Sequence record: LR880803
Source: Escherichia phage Barry
Direction: 5' to 3' (one strand)
DNA length: 64,000 nucleotides
Shown in pieces: positions 5,406 to 30,204 of the stretch (within the stretch, counting starts at the first letter, position 1; the number at the start of each line of letters is the position of its first letter). The notes beneath the pieces are model-generated. The model ran no database searches, was not told the origin of the DNA, and saw only the letters and a program-made list of their open reading frames with translations. The position numbers were made by a program, and so were the translations under genes.

Positions 5406-5753
5406 ATGACATTTAAAGAGTTCTGTCAAGCCACTTTCATAATTGTTTTCTTAGTTGGGGCAGGTGTCTGGGGAGGATACTCTTACAGAGACTATCAAGT
5501 TGCTGAAACTGAGCTAAATAATCAAAAGCTCATAAGTGTTGCTAAAGATGCTTATCAGGAAGGATTAGCCACACTGAGCACCAATTACAAAAATGATTTG
5601 AAAGATGTGCTTGCTAAGAATAAGCATACAAAAGAGGTACTAACATATGAAAAAACTAAGCCAGAGTTTTATAATGTTTGTGTTACTGATAACTATGTCA
5701 GGGTGTTCAACGAACAAAGTGAGCAGTACATTCAAAAACTCCCAAGTAAGTGA
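5406..5753 (+). CDS. i-spanin-like protein (N-terminal TM helix then periplasmic helical region)
   Basis: N-terminal hydrophobic segment FIIVFLVGAGVWGG; its 3' end is overlapped out of frame by a lipoprotein ORF. Confidence 0.4.
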   Translation: MTFKEFCQATFIIVFLVGAGVWGGYSYRDYQVAETELNNQKLISVAKDAYQEGLATLSTNYKNDLKDVLAKNKHTKEVLTYEKTKPEFYNVCVTDNYVRVFNEQSEQYIQKLPSK

Positions 5754-5916
5754 GAGTGATAAGTACACTCAAGAAGAATCACGGTATATCATCAAAGGCA
5801 ACACAGGCAGTGATGTAGCAGCAGCCCTTGAGTTCTATCGTGACGGATTTTACCAGTGCACAATCAAAGCTAATAACCTTATTGACATGATTTTACTAGG
5901 GAATAAGCAGCAATGA
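5647..5916 (+). CDS. o-spanin-like outer-membrane lipoprotein (overlapped architecture)
   Basis: signal peptide with lipobox-like ITMSGC; Cys in C-terminal part; starts inside 5406..5753 in another frame. Confidence 0.4.
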   Translation: MKKLSQSFIMFVLLITMSGCSTNKVSSTFKNSQVSESDKYTQEESRYIIKGNTGSDVAAALEFYRDGFYQCTIKANNLIDMILLGNKQQ

Positions 5917-6182
5917 CAGAGAATCAAGATACTTTCTATGTAGAAGGTTACTTACTGTTACCACGACCAAAAGAAACTTATATGCGAATTGATTTCATAC
6001 CAACCATCATGGATAATGTGATGTGCCATATCTTTATGCAAGGTGTCACAGCACAACTTAAGCATGTTGGCAAAGAGTGCAAAATAAAGGTTGACACTCA
6101 TCCAGAAATCAAAGAAAATCACTACACATGGTTCTTACCAGACTCTAAAGAAATCTTAGCAGTTCTTAAAACGAGGAAGTAA
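5913..6182 (+). CDS. hypothetical protein
   Basis: 89-aa ORF, tightly coupled (start overlaps previous stop). Confidence 0.4.
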   Translation: MTENQDTFYVEGYLLLPRPKETYMRIDFIPTIMDNVMCHIFMQGVTAQLKHVGKECKIKVDTHPEIKENHYTWFLPDSKEILAVLKTRK

Positions 6183-6184
6183 CT

Positions 6185-6508
6185 ATGCAGATTAATGGAA
6201 GAGACTTTGTAGCCGTTTACTACGAGAAAGGTAAAGAAGTTGGCGTAGCACAAGTATCTTATGGCAATGGTAAGTGGCTATATGGAACAATCGCAGTAGT
6301 AGGAACAAGAAGTGATACAAAAACTTTTAAAGATTGTGTTGACCTTCTTGAAGAATCCATCCAGAATCATTGGTGTCTGATATGGATGACTGATAACGAA
6401 GTGATGGAGCGTTTCAAAAAGATTGATATCAACATTGACAGTATTGAGCATGTTGATTTATATGAGCTAACTGAGAAGGTAAACTATGAAAGCTCTAGAG
6501 GTAATTGA
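6185..6508 (+). CDS. hypothetical protein
   Basis: 107-aa ORF, SD GAGGAAG upstream. Confidence 0.4.
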   Translation: MQINGRDFVAVYYEKGKEVGVAQVSYGNGKWLYGTIAVVGTRSDTKTFKDCVDLLEESIQNHWCLIWMTDNEVMERFKKIDINIDSIEHVDLYELTEKVNYESSRGN

Positions 6509-6713
6509 CAAAGATACTGGAGAGGTCACGTCAGCATGTGTTTTTGTGAGTCACGACACAGTGATACCATTTTACAGCCTCGACAGTTTTAGTTTTACAG
6601 GGACAACTCCAGAGGAATACTTTGAAGACCTCACCTTTGCCAGAATCTCTATAGACACATTCTATAAATGCTTCTATGATGAAGGTAAAGAATTACGAGA
6701 AACTGAACTATAA
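6486..6713 (+). CDS. hypothetical protein
   Basis: 75-aa ORF, overlaps previous by 23 nt. Confidence 0.35.
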   Translation: MKALEVIDKDTGEVTSACVFVSHDTVIPFYSLDSFSFTGTTPEEYFEDLTFARISIDTFYKCFYDEGKELRETEL

Positions 6714-6725
6714 GGTATATATTAT

Positions 6726-6926
6726 ATGGCTGACTTCTGCAAAGACTGTTCTATCGAAATGTTCGGACGTGATACAGGTGACTTAAAAGGTCTTATCACT
6801 GAAGATGATTTTAAAGCTGGCTATGCAATGCCAGTAATCTGTGAAGGTTGTGGGTGCATCTGGGTAGACCATGAGGGGCAACGTGTAAAACCTTCAGAAG
6901 ATAAAGAATCTTGGGAGAGATGTTAA
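6726..6926 (+). CDS. small zinc-ribbon protein
   Basis: 66 aa with CxxC ... CxGCGC cysteine pairs. Confidence 0.4.
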   Translation: MADFCKDCSIEMFGRDTGDLKGLITEDDFKAGYAMPVICEGCGCIWVDHEGQRVKPSEDKESWERC

Positions 6927-23369: not shown

Positions 23370-24784
23370 ATGAGCGAATTATTTAAACATGCGCACCTTC
23401 ATGCAGGTCGAACTGAAAATGGTGCTGTAAACCATACTTCATCAATGTCTGCTCTAGTAAACTTTTACAAAGCTGCTGGTTCAAGCCGTAGCAATGTAGA
23501 AATCTTACCAGACCTGTTCTACAAAGCTTTGCGTGAGGATGTTGATGTTGCAGTTCGTATTTTACTGCATATGCGAGATGTACGAGAAGGTATGGGTGAG
23601 CGTAAAGCCTTCAGAACTGTTTTGCTTCAAGCAATTGAAGACAAAGTTTTAGAGCCTACACAGGTTCTTCGCATTATGGATAAGATTGCAGAACTTGGTC
23701 GTTTTGATGACTTCAAAATCTTCGTAGGTACTCGTTTCGAGACGGATGCCTTCAAACATTTAGAGGCAGCATTACTAGACCCTGCAACAGCAGGTTTGGC
23801 AGCTAAGTGGTTACCACGAGTCAAACCACGTCATAAGCAGTTTGTAAAACGTTTCTGCAAGTTTGCCAACTTGAGTGAGAAAGAGTACCGCACACTGTTA
23901 TCTGCACTGTCTGATACGGTTGAGCAAAAATCTCTGCTAATGAGTTTGGTAAGATTGACTACAGCAAGATTCCTTCACTCGCTGCTGCACGTTACCAAAA
24001 GCTCTTTAACCGCAAAGATGGAGAACGTTACAAAGCTTACATCGAATCACTCTCAAAGGGTGAGTCTAAGATTAACGCTGGTGCTGTTTATCCATACGAT
24101 GTGATTAAGTCTATCAAGCATGGTAATGCAGATGTTGCCAATGAGCAGTGGAAAGCACTACCAAACTGGATGGCAGAAGGTGAGAACATCTTGTGTATGA
24201 CTGATGTTTCAAGCTCAATGTCTTGGGTGAATCTTGGTTCAATCACTGCCCTTGATATTGGTGTATCACTTGCCTTGTATGTAGCAGAACGCAATACTGG
24301 TTGTTTTAAGAATGAGTTAATGGTTTACTCAACAAACCCTCACTTCATCGAACTGAGCGGTGATTTACGAAACCGTCATCGTCAGGTGATGCGTCATGTT
24401 GAATATGGCTCAACTAACTTACAAGCAGCTTTTGACCGTATTCTTGAGATAGGTAAAAGAAACAACTTGACTCAGAAAGATATGCCAAGTAAGCTTGTCA
24501 TCTTCTCCGATATGGAGTTCAATCAGGTTGATGGAGTTAACGGTCGTACAAACTTTGAAGCAATTCAGAGTAAGTACAAGAAAGCTGGATACGAAATGCC
24601 ACAACTGGTATTCTGGTACTTAGCAAACCGTAATGGTACTTGCGAAGTGTCTGTTAAGGATAACGGTGTAGCAATGGTATCTGGTTTCTCTCCAGCCACT
24701 TTAAAAGCTTTGCTTGGTGGTGAGAAGTTTGACCCAATCAGTGTAATGCTCAAAGCAGTAATGATTGACCGTTACATCTGGTAA
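23370..24784 (+). CDS. vWA-domain protein (MIDAS motif) read as two ORFs (23370..24104 and 24101..24784) because of a frameshift at an A5 run near 23926..23930
   Basis: downstream frame has DVSSS (DxSxS) and reads sensibly back to 23924; upstream ORF tail after ~23930 is low-complexity; one extra A would fuse them (...SDTVEQK-ISANEFGKIDYSK...). Confidence 0.5.
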
Positions 24785-24802
24785 AAAGTTTCAAAAAGGG
24801 TA

Positions 24803-24831
24803 TTGACAATGTGTTTGATACCCTTTAATAT
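24803..24831 (+). promoter_or_regulatory. strong sigma70-like promoter upstream of the tRNA island
   Basis: TTGACA - 17 bp - TAATAT. Confidence 0.55.
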
Positions 24832-24949
24832 GTTCTACATAGAAACGAAACGAGAGCTTTTCTAAGATACTGAAAAATATTTTAAAAAAGTTCTTGACAA
24901 TCACTAAAAAATAATGTTAAAGTGGTTACATAGAGTTTGAAAAGTTTAT

Positions 24950-25026
24950 CTCTGTTTAGCTCAGATTGGTAGAGCGTTCCGTTTGGGGCGGTAAGGCCGG
25001 AGGTTCAAGTCCTCCAACAGAGACCA
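24950..25026 (+). tRNA. tRNA, anticodon read as TGG (Pro)
   Basis: acceptor CTCTGTT/AACAGAG, T-arm GGAGG-TTCAAGT-CCTCC, CCA encoded. Confidence 0.6.
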
Positions 25027-25033
25027 AATTAAT

Positions 25034-25111
25034 GTTCCAGTAGACAAAATGGTATAGTCACCACTCTTTCAAAGTGGATATCTGAGGGTTCAAATCCCTT
25101 CTGGAACGCCA
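25034..25111 (+). tRNA. tRNA, anticodon TTC (Glu)
   Basis: acceptor GTTCCAG/CTGGAAC, anticodon stem CCACT/AGTGG loop CTTTCAA, CCA encoded. Confidence 0.65.
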
Positions 25112-25203
25112 GTTTTGACAGAAGACCAATTACAGCAAACTTAATCTTATTCATCTGAAGGTAAATCGGACAAAGAAGAGATTTGGTCTGGTCATTAAGA
25201 ATT

Positions 25204-25279
25204 GCGGGTATAGAGAAAGGGCGTCTCACATGTCTCATTAGCATGGTATCGGCAGGTTCGACTCCTGCACCCGCCTCCA
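25204..25279 (+). tRNA. tRNA-like, anticodon CAT (Met/Ile2 type); boundaries approximate
   Basis: T-arm GCAGG-TTCGACT-CCTGC, anticodon stem CATGT/GCATG loop CTCATTA; acceptor pairing imperfect. Confidence 0.45.
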
Positions 25280-25357
25280 ATTTTGCAGAAGACCGTATTC
25301 AGCAACAAAATACTTTTTTGCGGATAAAAGAAAAAACACGGTCTGGCAATGTATTAA

Positions 25358-25434
25358 GGTTAGGAAGCACATAAGGTATGTGCGGTCGCCTGTTAAGCGA
25401 ATGGCACAGGGTTCGAATCCCTGACTAACCGCCA
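25358..25434 (+). tRNA. tRNA, anticodon GTT (Asn)
   Basis: acceptor GGTTAGG/ACTAACC, T-arm CAGGG-TTCGAAT-CCCTG, CCA encoded. Confidence 0.6.
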
Positions 25435-25442
25435 AATTAAAT

Positions 25443-25530
25443 GTGTCGTTATCCCGTAGATGGTAGCGGTGGGGACTGTAAATCCCTTGTCATTGAGACT
25501 CGGTAGGTTCGACTCCTACACGGCACACCA
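25443..25530 (+). tRNA. class II tRNA (long variable arm), anticodon GTA (Tyr)
   Basis: 88 nt; acceptor GTGTCGT/ACGGCAC; T-arm GTAGG-TTCGACT-CCTAC; loop CTGTAAA. Confidence 0.65.
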
Positions 25531-25535
25531 ATAAA

Positions 25536-25612
25536 GGCTATGTAGTTTAACTGGAGAAAATACTCCCCTGTCACGGGAGATGATGTGAGTTCAAGTCTCA
25601 TCGTAGCCGCCA
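25536..25612 (+). tRNA. tRNA, anticodon GTC (Asp)
   Basis: acceptor GGCTATG/CGTAGCC, anticodon stem CTCCC/GGGAG loop CTGTCAC. Confidence 0.65.
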
Positions 25613-25634
25613 ATTTTGAGAGGGCTATTTAGCC

Positions 25635-25672
25635 CCTCCCTTAAAGAGTTCTTACGAGTATTCTTTAAGGGA
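25635..25672 (+). ncRNA. 12-bp perfect hairpin between tRNAs (possible processing signal or small RNA)
   Basis: CTCCCTTAAAGA-gttcttacgagtat-TCTTTAAGGGAG. Confidence 0.35.
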
Positions 25673-26042
25673 GCAGAAGACCAAATACAGCAAGAATGTA
25701 TGAAATTTCAAGCCAATTTAATTTTGAAAATTTAAAACTTGGTCTGGCTCAACAAATTTACAGAAGGCCGTTTACAGCAAAACTTAAACAATCTATTTCT
25801 CCGGTACAGAAAAGGCGAAGGTTCGATTCCTTCACTCGGCAGATGTCGAGTTGGTGTAATGGTAGCACTTAAGATGATAAACAACGGTCTGGTAATTACC
25901 TTTGTAGATAAGTTATTAAGCTTACTTGTGAGTATGCGACCACAAAGGGTGAATGGGTAAATTCTAGATTTAAACCCAAAAAAGGCACATCGCTACAGAC
26001 CTTAAGCAAGTCTGGGTAGCTTATCTACAAAGATAATTTAAT

Positions 26043-26118
26043 GGAAGTGTAGCAGAATGGTGATGCGGCAGACTTTTAATCTGACAGGCGATGGGTTCGA
26101 ATCCCTCCACTTCTACCA
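26043..26118 (+). tRNA. tRNA, anticodon TTT (Lys); weak T-stem
   Basis: acceptor GGAAGTG/CACTTCT, loop CTTTTAA, T-loop TTCGAAT, CCA encoded. Confidence 0.5.
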
Positions 26119-26122
26119 ATAT

Positions 26123-26199
26123 GGTTCAGTCGCAGATAAGGTAATGCAAGGGTCTCATAAGCCCTATGAATGTGGGTTCGATTCCCATCTGAACCTCCA
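26123..26199 (+). tRNA. tRNA, anticodon CAT (Met/fMet/Ile2 type)
   Basis: acceptor GGTTCAG/CTGAACC, loop CTCATAA, T-loop TTCGATT. Confidence 0.6.
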
Positions 26200-26200
26200 A

Positions 26201-26276
26201 GCTGGTATAGTTAAGAAGGTTATAACACTCCCCTGATAAGGGAACATCGGTGGTTCGATTCCACCTACCAGTACCA
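26201..26276 (+). tRNA. tRNA, anticodon GAT (Ile)
   Basis: acceptor GCTGGTA/TACCAGT, T-arm GGTGG-TTCGATT-CCACC, loop CTGATAA. Confidence 0.6.
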
Positions 26277-26290
26277 ATTTCAATAAAGTT

Positions 26291-26319
26291 GTTGACATTG
26301 AGATGTGACTACTTTATAG
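26291..26319 (+). promoter_or_regulatory. internal sigma70-like promoter in the tRNA island
   Basis: TTGACA - 17 bp - TATAGT. Confidence 0.5.
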
Positions 26320-26522
26320 TAACCTTAGTTTTCGTTGCGTAGCGTCTATTTTGCAAATTTAAAATAAATGCAAACGACAATGTTTTTCTGGCAGTAGCTT
26401 GATAGGCTAAACACCAGTGAGGTCTTCCAATCCCTCATCAAAGAATTTGGCGTACTCGCCCACGGTATGATTAATAAGGTGGGCATCTTTAAGGGCTTTC
26501 TAAGAGAGTCTTTAAAGATAAT

Positions 26523-26599
26523 GCACCCTTAGTTCAATTGGATAGAGCAACGGTCTTCTAAATCGTTAGTTACAGGTTCGAATCCTGTAGGGTGTACCA
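26523..26599 (+). tRNA. tRNA, anticodon TCT (Arg)
   Basis: acceptor GCACCCT/AGGGTGT, D-arm GTTCAATTGGATAGAGC, T-arm ACAGG-TTCGAAT-CCTGT. Confidence 0.65.
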
Positions 26600-26742
26600 A
26601 ATAGTTAGCAGATTACTTAGACGGCCTTAGCGGGTCTTCCTGTAGGGAGGTGGTCTGTATCTCATGTTTTCCAGAACATGTAAATAATCTGAGAAGAAGC
26701 TTGACAGTGTTGAGATAATACGGTAAGCTTCGAATTATAGTA

Positions 26743-26820
26743 TGGGACGATGTTAAGACTCTAAGGCATGAGCAACGGCCTCCAAAACCGTTTCAAAGGG
26801 GTTCAACTCCTCCGTCCCAT
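26743..26820 (+). tRNA. tRNA, anticodon CCA (Trp); CCA not encoded
   Basis: acceptor TGGGACG/CGTCCCA, loop CTCCAAA, T-loop TTCAACT. Confidence 0.55.
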
Positions 26821-26837
26821 GCTAAAGATTGTTTCGG

Positions 26838-26924
26838 AGAGAGTGGCGGTCAACGGAGACCAACCAGCCTTGAAAACTGGTGCTGCTGGAAACGGTACGG
26901 GTTCAACTCCTGCACTCTCTGCCA
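26838..26924 (+). tRNA. class II tRNA, anticodon TGA (Ser)
   Basis: 87 nt; acceptor AGAGAGT/ACTCTCT; loop CTTGAAA; long variable arm. Confidence 0.6.
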
Positions 26925-26948
26925 AAATAATTTTTAAGGTGGTGATTA

Positions 26949-27289
26949 TGAAGAAAGGTTCAGTAGGTGAAATTGCTACACAATTAGCTTTCCTCAAAAG
27001 AGGTTATGAAGTATATTCACCAGCTACAGATAATGCAAAGTATGACTTTCTAGTTCACAAAGATGGTTTGATTGAAACTGTTGAGGTAAAATCAACATCA
27101 GTCAAAAGAGGTGAACTTTGGAGAGTGCAACTGAAAAGAGTTCGTTCTAACAAGAATGAAAATAGAATAATGAATTTTGATAACTCTCAAGTTGATTACT
27201 TAGCTGTTTACATTGAACCACTTGATAAAGTCGTCATCTACAAAGCTAAAGATGTCAAGTCTAAGACTGAACTTAGCTTAAAGATTTAA
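26949..27289 (+). CDS. small PD-(D/E)xK-type nuclease-like protein embedded in the tRNA island (Hjc/resolvase-like motif order)
   Basis: ATG at 26949 behind strong SD AAGGTGGTGA; GEIATQLAFLKRGYEV ... YDFLV ... VEVKS matches the E...D...E-x-K arrangement; track ORF 26768..27289 upstream part overlaps tRNAs and is not coding. Confidence 0.45.
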
Positions 27290-27530
27290 AGCCAAGCTTC
27301 ATTCGGATGTCGCTTTGGTATCCCTCGTGTATTGTCGTACACTGTCAAAGCACCTAGTAGGTGTCACGGAGAAGAGATAATATCAAGCTCTCCAAAGGTT
27401 CTAGTCACCGGATTAAACAAGACTATGCAAAGACCTATTTAGGTCTTTTTAGAGGGCTTCTAAGGTTATTAGTCGCTTGTTGTGGAACCTTGTTGCTCAG
27501 GTTCTTAGAAGTTCTCTAAAAAGATTTAAT

Positions 27531-27607
27531 GCACCTATAGCCCAACTGGTAGAGGCAGCAGACTTAGAATCTGCTCAGTGTGAGTTCGAATCTCTCTAGG
27601 TGTACCA
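27531..27607 (+). tRNA. tRNA, anticodon read as TAG, short variable arm (identity uncertain)
   Basis: acceptor GCACCTA/TAGGTGT, anticodon stem GCAGA/TCTGC loop CTTAGAA, T-loop TTCGAAT. Confidence 0.5.
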
Positions 27608-27614
27608 AATTAAT

Positions 27615-27690
27615 GCAGGTGTAGCAAAATGGTTATGCGGCTGACTCTTAATCAGTAAGACGATGGGTTCAATTCCCTCCACCTGTACCA
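27615..27690 (+). tRNA. tRNA, anticodon read as CTT (Lys), paralog of 26043..26118
   Basis: acceptor GCAGGTG/CACCTGT, loop CTCTTAA. Confidence 0.5.
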
Positions 27691-27696
27691 AACAAT

Positions 27697-27772
27697 GGGG
27701 TCATAGTTTATATGGTTAAAATTCGAGTTTTGCAAACTTGGGAACTGAGTTCAATTCTCAGTGACTCCACCA
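27697..27772 (+). tRNA. tRNA, anticodon tentatively TGC (Ala)
   Basis: acceptor GGGGTCA/TGACTCC, T-arm CTGAG-TTCAATT-CTCAG. Confidence 0.5.
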
Positions 27773-27778
27773 ATTAGT

Positions 27779-27853
27779 GCATCCATAGTTTAAACGGGAA
27801 AATTACAGTCTTCCAAACTGAGGTTGAGGGTTCGATTCCCTCTGGATGCTCCA
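27779..27853 (+). tRNA. tRNA, anticodon TCC (Gly)
   Basis: acceptor GCATCCA/TGGATGC, T-arm GAGGG-TTCGATT-CCCTC, loop CTTCCAA. Confidence 0.6.
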
Positions 27854-27860
27854 AATTAAT

Positions 27861-27935
27861 GCTCCTATCGTATAATTGGTTATTACGGTTGCCTTGTAAG
27901 CAACTTATCAGGGTTCGAGTCCTTGTGGGAGCACC
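27861..27935 (+). tRNA. tRNA, anticodon TGT (Thr)
   Basis: acceptor GCTCCTA/TGGGAGC, anticodon stem GTTGC/GCAAC loop CTTGTAA. Confidence 0.65.
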
Positions 27936-27939
27936 AATT

Positions 27940-28028
27940 CAGAGGTCAAGTGAAAGACCGCTTTGAGTCAACTGAAGACCGTAACAAATTCCACGAAGTT
28001 GAGTTAGCGGCACAACTTCAGACCTCTT
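27940..28028 (+). ncRNA. structured inter-tRNA spacer (candidate small stable RNA or processing element)
   Basis: long-range complement CAGAGGTC ... GACCTCT enclosing inner hairpin GAAGTTG...CAACTTC. Confidence 0.3.
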
Positions 28029-28032
28029 TCAT

Positions 28033-28107
28033 ACTCGCTTAGTTTATATGGTAAAACATCACCCTTACAAGATGAAGAAAAAGGTTCAAGTCCTTTAGTG
28101 AGTACCA
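28033..28107 (+). tRNA. tRNA, anticodon TAC (Val)
   Basis: acceptor ACTCGCT/AGTGAGT, D-stem GTTT/AAAC, T-arm AAAGG-TTCAAGT-CCTTT, loop CTTACAA. Confidence 0.55.
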
Positions 28108-28108
28108 T

Positions 28109-28186
28109 GTTCCAGTATCCCAATTGGCAGAGGATGCAAGCTCAAACCTTGTATTAGTGACGGTTCGAATCCGTCTTGGAACACCA
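28109..28186 (+). tRNA. tRNA, anticodon read as CAA, short variable arm (identity uncertain)
   Basis: acceptor GTTCCAG/TTGGAAC, T-arm GACGG-TTCGAAT-CCGTC. Confidence 0.5.
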
Positions 28187-28191
28187 ATTTT

Positions 28192-28267
28192 GCAGGATTA
28201 GTTCAAATGGATAGAGCAACAGTCTACGAAGCTGTTAATAGGGGTTCGAATCCCTTATCCTGCGCCA
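28192..28267 (+). tRNA. tRNA, anticodon ACG (Arg)
   Basis: acceptor GCAGGAT/ATCCTGC, D-arm GTTCAAATGGATAGAGC, loop CTACGAA. Confidence 0.65.
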
Positions 28268-28286
28268 ATTTAAAGAGGCTATTTAG

Positions 28287-28844
28287 ATGAGATATTTGAA
28301 GTATGCTTCATGGATTTTCTTAGCTTTGTTAGAGCCATTTGCAGCAATCTTAGCAGTTATCTTAGCACCTTTTGTAGTTCCATTCTACAGTGAGAAGAAA
28401 GGACACTTACCTTTCGGGTTCAGATGGATGGAGACATATGACAACCCAATTGATGGTGATGAAGGTCACGTTAAAAGATGGGCTAATATTAGATGGATTG
28501 GTAAACTAGGTGTCTACATGCAAAGAGTCGGATGGCTCTGGAGAAACAAAGCTTATAACTTCTCTTACCATGTATTAGGAAGAGATGTAAGAGATGTTAC
28601 TAAGTGGAAAGGTAATATCAACGTAAGTTCTGACCCCGAAGATAATCAGACAGGTTATCTCCTAATGTGGAACAGTAATGCTTGGGGATTATTCGCTTTT
28701 ATCCCATCAATTAAAATCTTTGGTAAACAATTTTACTGGAGAATTTATATTGGATGGAAACTAAAAAGTGTTGTCCCAGAAGAAAGAGCATTCTCAAGGG
28801 AAAGAGTTATGTTGGCATTCTTTATTCATCCACTGAGAAAGTAA
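28287..28844 (+). CDS. hypothetical Trp-rich membrane protein embedded in the tRNA island
   Basis: 185 aa; SD AAAGAGG; N-terminal hydrophobic segment FLALLEPFAAILAVILAPFVVPF. Confidence 0.45.
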   Translation: MRYLKYASWIFLALLEPFAAILAVILAPFVVPFYSEKKGHLPFGFRWMETYDNPIDGDEGHVKRWANIRWIGKLGVYMQRVGWLWRNKAYNFSYHVLGRDVRDVTKWKGNINVSSDPEDNQTGYLLMWNSNAWGLFAFIPSIKIFGKQFYWRIYIGWKLKSVVPEERAFSRERVMLAFFIHPLRK

Positions 28845-28852
28845 AGATTTAA

Positions 28853-28928
28853 AGGGGATTAGTTTACAAGGTTAAAACCTCGGTCTTTGAAATCGAAGAA
28901 GTTGGTTCAATTCCAACATCCCCCGCCA
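28853..28928 (+). tRNA. tRNA, anticodon TTG (Gln); 1:72 mismatch
   Basis: T-arm GTTGG-TTCAATT-CCAAC, D-stem GTTT/AAAC, loop CTTTGAA. Confidence 0.55.
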
Positions 28929-28930
28929 AT

Positions 28931-29009
28931 GCTCCATTACTCCAATTGGCAGAGAGGCCAGACTTAAAATCTGTGTTATGTATCGGTTCGAATCCGATAT
29001 GGAGTACCA
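28931..29009 (+). tRNA. tRNA, anticodon read as TAA (identity uncertain)
   Basis: acceptor GCTCCAT/ATGGAGT, T-arm ATCGG-TTCGAAT-CCGAT, loop CTTAAAA. Confidence 0.5.
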
Positions 29010-29014
29010 AATTT

Positions 29015-29090
29015 AGCGGTATAGCATAACTGGCAATGCAGCAGCCTCTGAAGCTGTCCTATTAAGGTTCAAATCCTTATGCCGCTGCCA
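29015..29090 (+). tRNA. tRNA, anticodon CTG (Gln)
   Basis: acceptor AGCGGTA/TGCCGCT, D-stem GCAT/ATGC, loop CTCTGAA. Confidence 0.55.
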
Positions 29091-29121
29091 CTTCTAAGGA
29101 TTCTTGCGAGAGTCCTTAAAT

Positions 29122-29197
29122 GTGGCCTTATCATAAACGGTAATGACCCATGCTGTGAACATGGTCTATACGGGTTCAAATCCCGTAGGTCACCCCA
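29122..29197 (+). tRNA. tRNA, anticodon GTG (His)
   Basis: acceptor GTGGCCT/AGGTCAC, anticodon stem CCATG/CATGG loop CTGTGAA, T-arm ACGGG-TTCAAAT-CCCGT. Confidence 0.6.
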
Positions 29198-29203
29198 ATT
29201 TAT

Positions 29204-29279
29204 AGTCCAAGTAGCTTATATGGTTAAAGCGCGTGTCTGAAAAACATGAGAAGAGGGTTCAAATCCCACTGGACTACCA
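29204..29279 (+). tRNA. tRNA, anticodon GAA (Phe)
   Basis: D-stem GCTT/AAGC, loop CTGAAAA, T-loop TTCAAAT, CCA encoded; boundaries approximate. Confidence 0.55.
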
Positions 29280-29296
29280 ATTTCAAAGGTGCTTAA

Positions 29297-30030
29297 TGAA
29301 AGAGATGACAGAACAAGGTAAGGAGATTTTTAATCTCTTAAAAACTGGTAAAGGGTTCTCTAACCCGCTTATTACTGGTGCAGCAGTTCTCGGTGGAACC
29401 GTAGCTGCTTCTACATCACTTGTAAGCTCTATTAGTTCTGTAACAGACCCTACAATGAAGGAGAAACTTGTTGCTGCTGGACTTACAACAGTCCTTCTAA
29501 ACAGCTTTACAACAAGCCTTACAAGCACTACAGCAACTACTAAAACTCTGACAGACTACGGTCAAAAATCTATTGATGAGTTTTCATCACGTATGCAGGT
29601 AGCAAAGGGGTATTCCAATGTTATGGGTGCAGCAGGAGAACAAGTTGGTTGTACACCATTCAGTGGTATCATGGGTGTTGCTACAGAGTATGGTCAAAAA
29701 GCTATTGACATGATGAACAGTACACTAGATAGTGTTAATGGTGTGTTAAGTGACTTACAAGATGCTATTGATAAGGGTCTTGATACTGTTTCTGATTTAG
29801 CTAACCAAGCTGTCAGTAAGATTAATGAAGGTATTTCAAAGATTACAGCTTATGCAGATGAAGTTGTGCAGATGATTGAAGAAGAAGCTGCCCTTATTGC
29901 AGAGTACCTTAAAACGAATATCAATGGGTTCTTAGCAGGTATCTTACCAGACTGGTTTGACGATGCTTGTAAAACTGGTGTGATTGACACTATTGCAACA
30001 CCAGAAATGAAGAGCGCATTACAGAAATAA
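29297..30030 (+). CDS. hypothetical Ser/Thr/Ala-rich protein
   Basis: ATG at 29297 (MKEMTEQG...); track ORF start 29233 lies inside the preceding tRNA. Confidence 0.45.
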
Positions 30031-30031
30031 T

Positions 30032-30124
30032 GGAAGATTAACCCTAAAAGGTAAGGGAGCAGTTTGCTAAACTGCCAGTAGCTGAGAAATCGGTGTACCA
30101 GTTCAAGTCTGGTATCTTCCTCCA
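30032..30124 (+). tRNA. class II tRNA, anticodon GCT (Ser)
   Basis: 93 nt; acceptor GGAAGAT/ATCTTCC; anticodon stem GCAGT/ACTGC loop TTGCTAA; T-arm ACCAG-TTCAAGT-CTGGT. Confidence 0.65.
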
Positions 30125-30128
30125 ATTT

Positions 30129-30204
30129 GAATCCGTGACAGAAATGGATATGTGCCTGTCTGCAAAACAGGTTTATAAGGGTTCGAGTCCCTTCGGATTC
30201 TCCA
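30129..30204 (+). tRNA. tRNA, anticodon GCA (Cys)
   Basis: acceptor GAATCCG/CGGATTC, anticodon stem CCTGT/ACAGG loop CTGCAAA, T-arm AAGGG-TTCGAGT-CCCTT. Confidence 0.65.

Follow-up and report, generated by a model that had tools for sequence, protein, structure and literature searches.

In bacteria, Ro60 ring proteins form complexes with Y RNAs, which gate the ring and tether it to PNPase. The Salmonella rsr-yrlBA-rtcBA locus encodes several such small RNAs, with pairing ends, beside a gene of the Ro60 type and on the same strand; YrlA is defined by a V stem-loop, a T arm, a closed acceptor-like stem and a D arm, in this order, within a terminal stem and by its place next to Ro60, and YrlB has no tRNA-like part (PMC4201824). 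In Thermus phage phiLo, a phage-encoded Ro60 with Yrl RNAs binds host PNPase (PMC12135203). A 2024 preprint reported that Bas63 gp130, a homologue of a gene considered below, is Ro60-like and counters Ppl defence, and merely guessed that Y RNAs might hide among annotated tRNAs (bioRxiv 10.1101/2024.10.10.617714). Here we analysed a 64,000-nucleotide stretch of Escherichia phage Barry (LR880803; hereafter the window), whose tRNA island, at 24803-30204, had been noted for structured spacers in a preliminary description made from the letters alone. Within these spacers we found a family of four RNA elements, E1-E4, and we consider it likely that this tRNA operon of the Felix O1 type carries in them Y-RNA-like partners of a Ro60-like ring protein encoded just upstream.

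The 64 kb hold four copies of the box AGAAG(A/G)CC-N3-6-CAGCAA, all of them between 25120 and 25780, and GGTCTGG follows each copy. The preliminary description had reported two long-range stems of the form AGAAGACC...GGTCTGG; these stems are real, but there are four of them (25123/25189, 25290/25344, 25678/25745 and 25765/25890), and their belonging to four paralogous elements that share the motif UACAGCAA had escaped notice. Each element (Table 1) is built of a 3-bp outer helix (P0), an AGA/G internal loop and a 7-bp stem (P1), followed by single-stranded (U)UACAGCAA. The outer helix covaries between the copies (GAC/GUC, UGC/GCA and AGC/GCU in E1, E2 and E3, UAC/GUA in E4), and all nine distinct termini of the family keep every pair. 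Where AGGCCGU or AGACUGU stands opposite ACGGUCU, pairing is kept solely as G-U in the RNA of the plus strand. In Felixounavirus, Mooglevirus and Suspvirus, three genera of Ounavirinae, the boxes never change, in contrast to the interiors, which differ in both sequence and length. The elements start 4-5 nt past the CCA of a tRNA or abut the preceding spacer element; from the 3' end of E1-E3 to the tRNA or Y-like element that follows there is a gap of 9 nt, whereas E4 abuts another structured spacer element, E5. From this spacing we infer that tRNA-processing enzymes could release E1-E4.

The interior of E4 has the order of a circularly permuted tRNA, namely V stem-loop, perfect T arm, 6-7-bp hairpin and D arm. 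Compensatory changes are seen in the hairpin (ACUCG/CGAGU, ACACG/CGUGU, CCCUUC/GAAGGG), 97.8% of the cells pair in an alignment of eight genomes, and the single-sequence minimum-energy fold reproduces all five helices. A "degenerate tRNA-like element" had been placed near 25766-25841; it is indeed tRNA-like, but it is a conserved permuted T/hairpin/D module inside the fourth stem rather than a product of decay.

The gene that is decisive for interpreting these RNAs lies just upstream of the coordinates of the preliminary description and had been overlooked there. It ends 333 nt before the start of E1, on the same strand, and its product matches DUF2828 and DUF7788 in Pfam, with no match to Pfam TROVE; phmmer against PDB sequences likewise found no solved Ro60 chain for it. 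The likeness to Ro60 was revealed only through comparison of folds. An AlphaFold2 model, built on a database homologue of 98% identity and an alignment of 34 sequences, had a pLDDT of 86.9, and its top 11 PDB matches in Foldseek were all Ro60/TROVE structures, aligned over the full length of the model (among them 2i91, 1yvp, 2nvo and phage phiLo 9l5y; E 2e-8 to 2e-6, TM up to 0.66), including Xenopus Ro60, Deinococcus Rsr and Thermus phage phiLo Ro60. The secondary structure of the model runs from helical repeats into an alpha/beta domain, as in a HEAT-repeat ring with a vWA domain, and the MIDAS-type DxSxS residues of the latter (D279, S281 and S283) are invariant across 34 homologues. The product of the DUF2828+DUF7788 gene thus models as a Ro60 ring plus vWA domain. 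By tblastn, members of the family are present in at least 709 phage records, among them mycobacteriophage proteins named "Ro-like RNA binding protein", and a search for DUF2828 proteins had 2,542 hits at E ≤ 0.001.

Loci around the homologous gene were then taken from seven distant phage lineages. Adjoining the gene and on its strand, the same RNA design was present: a 6-8-bp stem, then W-H-CAGCAA(A), with stem sequences unrelated between lineages. The stems are GGACUGU/ACAGUCC, GGAUUC/GAAUCC and GGACUC/GAGUCC in Yersinia phage P778, GAAGAU, AGAAGAA and AGAAGCU in Klebsiella phage FBKp34, and UGGACGC, UGGACUCC and UGGUCAC in mycobacteriophage Itos; Aeromonas phage LAh_6, Cronobacter phage S13 and Campylobacter phage F368 have further distinct ones. 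The 5' strand is (G/A)CAGAAGACC in Ounavirinae and GGAC..., AGAAG... or UGGAC... in other lineages. A closing stem of at least 6 bp (P1) accompanies WHCAGCAA in 47/54 cases beside the gene, compared with 12/82 elsewhere, and comes in 23 distinct versions. Strict matches numbered 54 on the gene strand and 11 on the other strand, compared with 3.4 +/- 1.5 in shuffles. A single copy in each of FBKp34, Itos and S13 contains the complete T, closed-acceptor and D module, and a covariance model built from Ounavirinae E4 alone found full-length matches beside the gene in FBKp34 (48 bits, E 2e-9) and in Itos (46.5 bits, E 4e-9). In the alignment of E4 with the distant matches, which was fitted to the model, 98.1% of the cells are paired and 19/28 pairs show compensatory changes; 0/500 shuffles reached these values, and slid controls were likewise nowhere near them. 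E1-E4 are, then, an RNA family with a defined structure and strand that co-occurs with the Ro60-like gene.

Two candidates were discarded: an alignment from a permissive model search (A9), which was contaminated by tandem-tRNA pseudo-matches, and an S13 match at 5941-6071, itself such a pseudo-match spanning two neighbouring tRNA-like genes. Separately, the S13 locus at 5896-6138 and the FBKp34 locus at 6003-6116 contain otherwise complete tRNA-like genes of 113-121 nt, in which a hairpin with UAUUCAGCA/UUACAGCA is inserted between the D arm and the anticodon arm; this is the unpermuted counterpart of the Y-like topology. Such overlong tRNA-like genes carry the annotations tRNA-Ser, tRNA-Asp or tRNA-OTHER, and the LAh_6 locus at 1494-1610 is just an overlong Rfam tRNA match. 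Many of the short Y-like elements have an inner hairpin with a 7-8-nt loop, GCG(C/G)AUA or UGCAUA (for example at 25316-25327 of the window, 5645-5660 of the FBKp34 locus and 5470-5482 of a further locus, L014), which may be a second recognition module.

The likeness to the Salmonella locus (PMC4201824) is close: several small RNAs lie near a Ro60 orthologue and on its strand, and their ends pair into a long bulged stem (P0, AGA/G and P1) that closes a large loop. The YrlA order of V, T, closed acceptor-like and D parts was found in E4 alone of the window, as well as in FBKp34, Itos and S13, and E1-E3 resemble YrlB in having no tRNA-like part. The most economical reading is that E4 is the YrlA-type member and E1-E3 the YrlB-type members for the Ro60-like protein. 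Differences from YrlA/YrlB and Rsr are that the protein belongs to the DUF2828/DUF7788 branch, that the motif GNCGAAN0-1G is replaced by the AGA/G bulged helix plus UACAGCAA, and that the RNAs sit inside a tRNA operon, with short forms of 65-78 nt. Because GNCGAAN0-1G is missing, Pfam gives no TROVE match and no Rfam family is matched, membership of E1-E4 in YrlA proper is not established. With phiLo (PMC12135203), the window shares a phage protein of Ro60 fold with adjacent Y-like RNAs (Yrl1/Yrl2 in phiLo), and the phiLo structure is among the best fold matches; the phiLo RNAs, however, lie upstream of the gene and carry a CGAA motif, and their binding and PNPase recruitment have been demonstrated, whereas the RNAs described here are known from sequence alone.

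Several observations weigh against pairing E1-E4 with the Ro60-like protein. The canonical Ro60 contact motif, GNCGAAN0-1G in bacteria or GGUCCGA in animals, was absent from the 5' strand of the elements, which have AGAAG and a different conserved motif instead. No Rfam 15 family matched E1-E4 (E up to 5-10) apart from a weak partial tRNA, and gathering and permissive Rfam scans of the window and the seven distant loci gave only tRNA matches in the spacers. Folding z scores of the single sequences are modest (-1.0 to -2.9), and part of the pair counts comes from the fitted alignment mentioned above. Vibrio phage phi-pp2 has the gene with no convincing element nearby. In the window itself the Ro60-like gene is frameshifted, being split into two open reading frames by a 1-nt deletion, relative to phage Tribble, in an A6 run near 23925; the deletion may reflect an error in sequencing, or the gene may truly be a pseudogene. 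Finally, the expression, processing and binding of E1-E4 are predictions drawn from nucleotide patterns.

The tRNA cluster of T4 produces stable RNAs C and D, which are not tRNAs and are matured by tRNA-processing enzymes. The parallel with T4 small stable RNAs had been drawn in the preliminary description, and it pointed in the right direction, the specific form here being candidate Y-like RNAs with a Ro60-like gene. We know of no Ro60-like gene in T4, and RNAs C and D are likened to E1-E4 by their position in a phage tRNA cluster, as compared by description only.

In the mechanism that we favour, the island would be transcribed from apparent host-type promoters, and tRNA-processing nucleases (RNase P and 3'-end trimmers) would release E1-E4 as free RNAs of 65-136 nt. 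The ends of each RNA would pair into the bulged helix, closing a loop that opens with single-stranded UACAGCAA, and its putative ligand would be the Ro60-like ring protein from the adjacent upstream gene. If they act as Y RNAs do in complexes with Ro60, bound E1-E4 might gate the ring or tether it to a host enzyme such as PNPase; the outcome would be phage control over the turnover of structured RNAs and tRNAs, or a blunted host defence.

Alternatively, the spacer elements could be cis-acting processing or stability signals of the tRNA precursor (guides for RNase E, III or P, or blocks to exonucleases), with no free RNAs and no link to the protein. Their location exactly between tRNAs agrees with this, as do the long hairpins that abut tRNA 5' ends in other spacers (E5, 27439-27529 and 27941-28027) and the hairpin and motif carried inside tRNA-like genes of S13 and FBKp34. 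We nevertheless think it unlikely: the 9.4-kb Itos locus has 0 predicted tRNAs and that of F368 one, yet the elements still stand directly beside the Ro60-like gene; they are missing from most tRNA junctions of the island; and the invariant single-stranded 8-mer and the full T/acceptor/D module are left unexplained. It is more improbable still that E1-E4 are genuine small RNAs independent of the Ro60-like protein, such as tRNA mimics serving as decoys for modification enzymes or for host defence nucleases that cleave tRNAs; E4 does mimic a tRNA, and phage tRNAs do counter tRNA-targeting defences (PMC13596443; PhageMaP preprint), but E1-E3 lack tRNA-like parts, and the co-occurrence with the gene across seven phage lineages speaks for partnership.

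A very improbable origin is by decay, the elements being tRNA pseudogenes or remnants left behind as tRNA genes turn over in a rapidly changing island. The T-arm and D-arm sequences of E4, the annotation of the spacer with E3 and E4 as tRNA-Thr or tRNA-OTHER in some records, and the gain and loss of tRNA and endonuclease genes between relatives would fit, but decay cannot yield the permuted order of T arm, closed hairpin and D arm, E1-E3 have no tRNA-like part at all, and compensatory changes maintain all helices across genera and phyla. Repeats acting at the level of DNA, as sites of inverted-repeat recombination or of homing through which tRNA cassettes or endonuclease genes are moved, are hardly credible despite the several copies of short inverted repeats and the HNH and PD-(D/E)XK endonuclease genes in the islands of various relatives, for the G-U replacements pair only in plus-strand RNA, stems that differ wholly between phages retain pairing and a one-sided motif, orientation always matches the Ro60-like gene, and the positions of indels between relatives are not those of the boxes.

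A second unannotated RNA of the island resembles transfer-messenger RNA (tmRNA, or SsrA). A promoter had been seen at 26291, but what had been missed is a conserved, putative tmRNA-like RNA downstream, which this promoter (at 26292 in our coordinates) would drive. The leader of ~200 nt that follows the promoter is nearly invariant in Ounavirinae and contains the frame GCA AAC GAC AAU GUU UUU CUG GCA GUA GCU UGA UAG, that is, ANDNVFLAVA and two stops; the SsrA tag of Escherichia coli (E. coli) is ANDENYALAA. As in the mRNA-like domain of tmRNA, there is a resume codon with no start, a short tag whose last residues are hydrophobic or Ala, and stops; the frame in the window has no ATG, GTG or TTG in register, and most phages examined likewise lack an in-frame start codon. 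Tag substitutions among relatives are synonymous or stop-to-stop, save one conservative V-to-A, and an overlapping AUG frame (MQTTMFFWQ), which was considered and rejected, is less conserved than the GCA frame. The stop codons sit within a hairpin loop, the next hairpin covaries (UGAGG/CCUCA, CAGGG/CCCUG, CAAGG/CCUUG, CGAGG/CCUCG), and a candidate H-type pseudoknot is plausible. Tags in other lineages read ANEEMYLAVA, ANDNTFLAVA, ANDDVVLMAA, ANEEVYLAVA, ANDTEFLAVA and ANDAQFLAVA, and between the seven other lineages the tag changes are mostly conservative.

This RNA scored 15.7 bits with the Rfam tmRNA model and 29.2 bits with tmRNA_permuted, short of the threshold of 47. Between the promoter and tRNA-Arg there was no sign of an alanine-type acceptor stem (G3-U70), a T arm or a CCA end, and ARAGORN made no tmRNA call in the window or in five homologous loci. 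In each lineage the homology begins just past the promoter, at which the upstream sequences diverge, and TTGACA promoter-like sequences are similarly placed before the homologous RNA in Erwinia and Klebsiella phages. The core has matches in 626 phage records of unrelated groups (Ounavirinae, Ackermannviridae, N4-like Gamaleyavirus, T5-like phages and Klebsiella Jedunavirus), with nothing annotated under the core in nearly all phage records among the matches listed. The core is also present in 347 of 5,426 E. coli genomes, in prophages and plasmids; the one match inspected lies in a lambdoid prophage, between the Q antiterminator and the holin, and most other places are plasmids. With tmRNA, including that of Bxz1-type mycobacteriophages and Bacillus phage G (PMC4131195), the RNA shares a start-less, GCA-initiated tag of 10 codons, looped stops and further helices; it differs from tmRNA in that no tRNA-like domain was found, that a promoter of its own precedes it and that it is scattered over enterobacterial phages and prophages which are not related to one another. 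In a 2014 census, the phages listed with ssrA were confined to mycobacteriophages and Bacillus phage G, apart from one phage that carries just the tRNA-like half (PMC4131195). In Citrobacter phage Mijalis (KY654690.2) ARAGORN called a permuted tmRNA at 6146-6894, which we rejected as one gene, as it joins E4 to a tag 600 nt downstream over three tRNA genes; the tag was kept as a lead. The Mijalis feature table is offset by ~58 nt from the sequence in the tRNA region, and ARAGORN coordinates were therefore used.

ARAGORN found 26 tRNAs, all on the plus strand between 24950 and 30204 and all encoding CCA; Rfam at gathering score supports 23 of them. Together with an atypical Trp-like tRNA at 26741-26818 they account for the "about 27" counted by eye, and the class II Ser (87 and 93 nt) and Tyr (88 nt) tRNAs were confirmed. 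All 20 amino acids are covered by the 26 tRNAs of standard fold and the Trp-like one. Bacterial tRNA-Leu is nearly always of type II, and the identity set of E. coli leucyl-tRNA synthetase (LeuRS) is A73, A14, A15-U48 and G18G19 (PMC6614811). The three tRNA-Leu of the island (starting at 27531, 28109 and 28931) have no long variable arm and do carry this identity set: they are 77-79 nt long with CCA, with variable loops of 5-7 nt and a D loop AAYUGGYAGA on a 3-bp D stem, and direct reading shows U8, A14, A15, G18G19, U48 and A73 all retained. The suspicion that they are atypical was therefore right, and an error of register is excluded. Standard identities assigned by predictors had been named as grounds for refutation, and in name predictors do assign them, calling Leu by anticodon (ARAGORN here, tRNAscan-SE in the annotation of the Sf13 record), yet the structures stay class I.

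Most likely, to judge from the nucleotides retained, these class I-shaped tRNA-Leu lost the long arm and kept the LeuRS determinants. Their lengths are the same in every Ounavirinae genome examined and in P778. With the type I tRNA-Leu of Streptomyces coelicolor and of mitochondria they have in common a Leu anticodon with a 5-7-nt variable loop; compared with these, the phage trio retains A73, A14, A15-U48 and the Leu-type D loop of E. coli (PMC6614811). They would have to be charged by the host LeuRS, which normally meets type II substrates only. A Felixounavirus homologue of tRNA-Ser(UGA) is functional in recoded E. coli (PMC12269064, PMC13596443), and the class I tRNA-Leu bear on the charging of phage tRNAs by host LeuRS, which is relevant to the recoded-genome firewalls that Felixounaviruses breach. 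For tRNA-Leu(CAA), blastn gave no match among E. coli genomes, which has no bearing on a host origin.

The Trp-like tRNA was missed by ARAGORN and falls under the Rfam threshold; it is almost invariant across Ounavirinae. It shows compensatory changes in the D stem (CUC/GAG to CAC/GUG), the anticodon stem (ACGG/CCGU to UAAG/CUUA) and the T stem, and an odd 9-10-nt connector precedes its 3-bp D stem. A1-U72, G73 and the anticodon loop CUCCAAA are present, which we take to be identity elements of E. coli tRNA-Trp. Its 3' end is GCTA in the window and GCCA in all relatives.

Matches to the promoter consensus stand at 24803, 24894 and 26292, among others, and the total of such matches, 18, is no excess over the expected 15.3 +/- 4.1. 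Of the two sigma70-like promoters named in the preliminary description, that at 26292 is conserved, its -35 hexamer being kept in six Ounavirinae; the other, at 24803, falls within the 12-bp hairpin directly 3' of the upstream gene, with its -35 hexamer in the hairpin loop, and the match at 24894 is better placed for driving tRNA-Pro. The 12-bp perfect hairpin reported at 25635-25672 is real and lies at 25636-25673; the folding energy of this hairpin and its neighbour together is -27.7 kcal/mol (z -5.2). E5 has a z of -4.96 and seven compensatory pairs across eight phages (Ounavirinae). The two leader hairpins stop 1-5 nt short of tRNA-Leu(UAG) and tRNA-Val and are possible RNase III or RNase P processing structures; together with E5 they look like leader or processing structures.

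The island is the tRNA operon of a Felix O1-type phage (Felixounavirus), a conserved feature annotated already in hundreds of relatives, which the preliminary description had not recognised. Escherichia phage vB_Eco_Tribble is 99.9% identical to the 5.4-kb stretch, and its record has the identical set of 26 tRNAs; 365 phage records, mostly of Felixounavirus and its relatives, match at 80-99% identity, and most relatives among the matches listed have a tRNA cluster annotated at the locus. Gene order is as in Felix O1, wV8, Bas63 and the REP phages, the embedded DUF7338 and DUF7217 genes are shared, and there are no differences at the level of the island. Its portrayal as an island with promoters, embedded genes and structured spacers was correct, and the earlier interpretation as a whole is partly supported. 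The families of the three embedded protein genes are likewise real, although the starts of the first and third had been set one base too high. What is unannotated are the four Y-like RNAs and the tmRNA-like RNA; in the annotated records examined, neither these nor E5 and the Trp-like tRNA are annotated as such.

Candidate RNA ligands for the Ro60-like family now have coordinates, and they are described by a covariance model and by a consensus of bulged helix plus UACAGCAA. They would widen the notion of Y RNAs to take in another branch of proteins, with a recognition motif of its own, and would mean that tRNA operons are usable for making non-tRNA RNAs. The tmRNA-like element, if true, would be an unrecognised phage route to manipulating ribosome rescue. 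A broader reading, possible though doubtful, is that the island is not a codon supply but a toolkit for RNA surveillance and translation, comprising a Ro60-like ring with four Y-like RNAs, a 20-amino-acid tRNA set with host-unlike class I Leu, and a tmRNA mimic with a promoter, which has the half that codes for the tag and lacks the tRNA half; this RNA would then be a new class of phage RNA, spread horizontally among phages of at least seven lineages and into prophages and plasmids of E. coli, that interferes with or redirects host trans-translation.

Table 1. Features of the tRNA island of phage Barry and its upstream flank, in window coordinates
Feature	Position	Strand	Evidence or details
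Ro60-like gene, DUF2828 + DUF7788	23370-24784	+	Pfam; PHROG 850 "RNA-binding protein"
12-bp hairpin	24795-24826	+	directly 3' of Ro60-like gene; terminator-like and promoter scans
sigma-70-like promoter match TTGACA-18-TAAAGT, TG upstream	24894-24923	+	27 nt 5' of tRNA-Pro
tRNA-Pro, Glu, Met, Asn, Tyr, Asp, with E1 and E2 interspersed	24950-25612	+	ARAGORN, Rfam
E1, short Y-like RNA	25117-25193	+	P1 25123-25129 with 25183-25189; UACAGCAA at 25131-25138
E2, short Y-like RNA	25284-25348	+	P1 25290-25296 with 25338-25344; UUCAGCAA at 25298-25305
Two neighbouring hairpins 3' of tRNA-Asp	25622-25673	+	folding
E3, short Y-like RNA	25672-25749	+	P1 25678-25684 with 25739-25745; UACAGCAA at 25686-25693
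E4, YrlA-type Y-like RNA	25759-25894	+	P1 25765-25771 with 25884-25890; motif 25773-25780
E4, V stem-loop	25796-25812	+	
E4, T arm	25817-25833	+	
E4, closed acceptor-like hairpin	25834-25851	+	
E4, D arm	25854-25868	+	
E5, 149-nt hairpin	25894-26042	+	23-bp closing stem and inner hairpins; 4 nt 5' of tRNA-Lys
tRNA-Lys(UUU), Met, Ile	26043-26276	+	ARAGORN, Rfam
sigma-70-like promoter TTGACA-17-TATAGT	26292-26320	+	11/12 matches; precedes tmRNA-like RNA
tmRNA-like RNA, conserved core	26330-26485	+	tag frame 26370-26399, stop codons 26400-26405
tRNA-Arg(UCU)	26523-26599	+	ARAGORN, Rfam
Atypical Trp-like tRNA	26741-26818	+	sub-threshold for predictors; conserved with compensatory changes
tRNA-Ser(UGA)	26838-26924	+	ARAGORN
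PDDEXK_5 PD-(D/E)XK endonuclease family protein, 113 aa	26948-27289	+	Pfam E 3e-17
Leader hairpin, 26-bp stem	27439-27529	+	z -5.6; 1 nt 5' of tRNA-Leu(UAG)
Class I tRNA-Leu(UAG)	27531-27607	+	ARAGORN, Rfam
tRNA-Lys(CUU), Ala, Gly, Thr	27615-27936	+	ARAGORN, Rfam
Leader hairpin	27941-28027	+	z -3.3; abuts tRNA-Val 5' end
tRNA-Val, class I tRNA-Leu(CAA) at 28109-28186, tRNA-Arg(ACG)	28033-28267	+	ARAGORN, Rfam
DUF7338 protein, 185 aa	28287-28844	+	Pfam; putative membrane protein in relatives' annotation
tRNA-Gln(UUG), class I tRNA-Leu(UAA) at 28931-29009, Gln(CUG), His, Phe	28853-29279	+	ARAGORN, Rfam
DUF7217 protein, 244 aa	29296-30030	+	Pfam, PHROG
tRNA-Ser(GCU), Cys	30032-30204	+	ARAGORN, Rfam

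Between relatives, tRNAs and endonuclease genes are gained and lost in the island. The small PD-(D/E)XK gene lies at 26948-27289 here, and HNH endonuclease genes are found elsewhere in the islands of relatives, which suggests turnover of the homing type.

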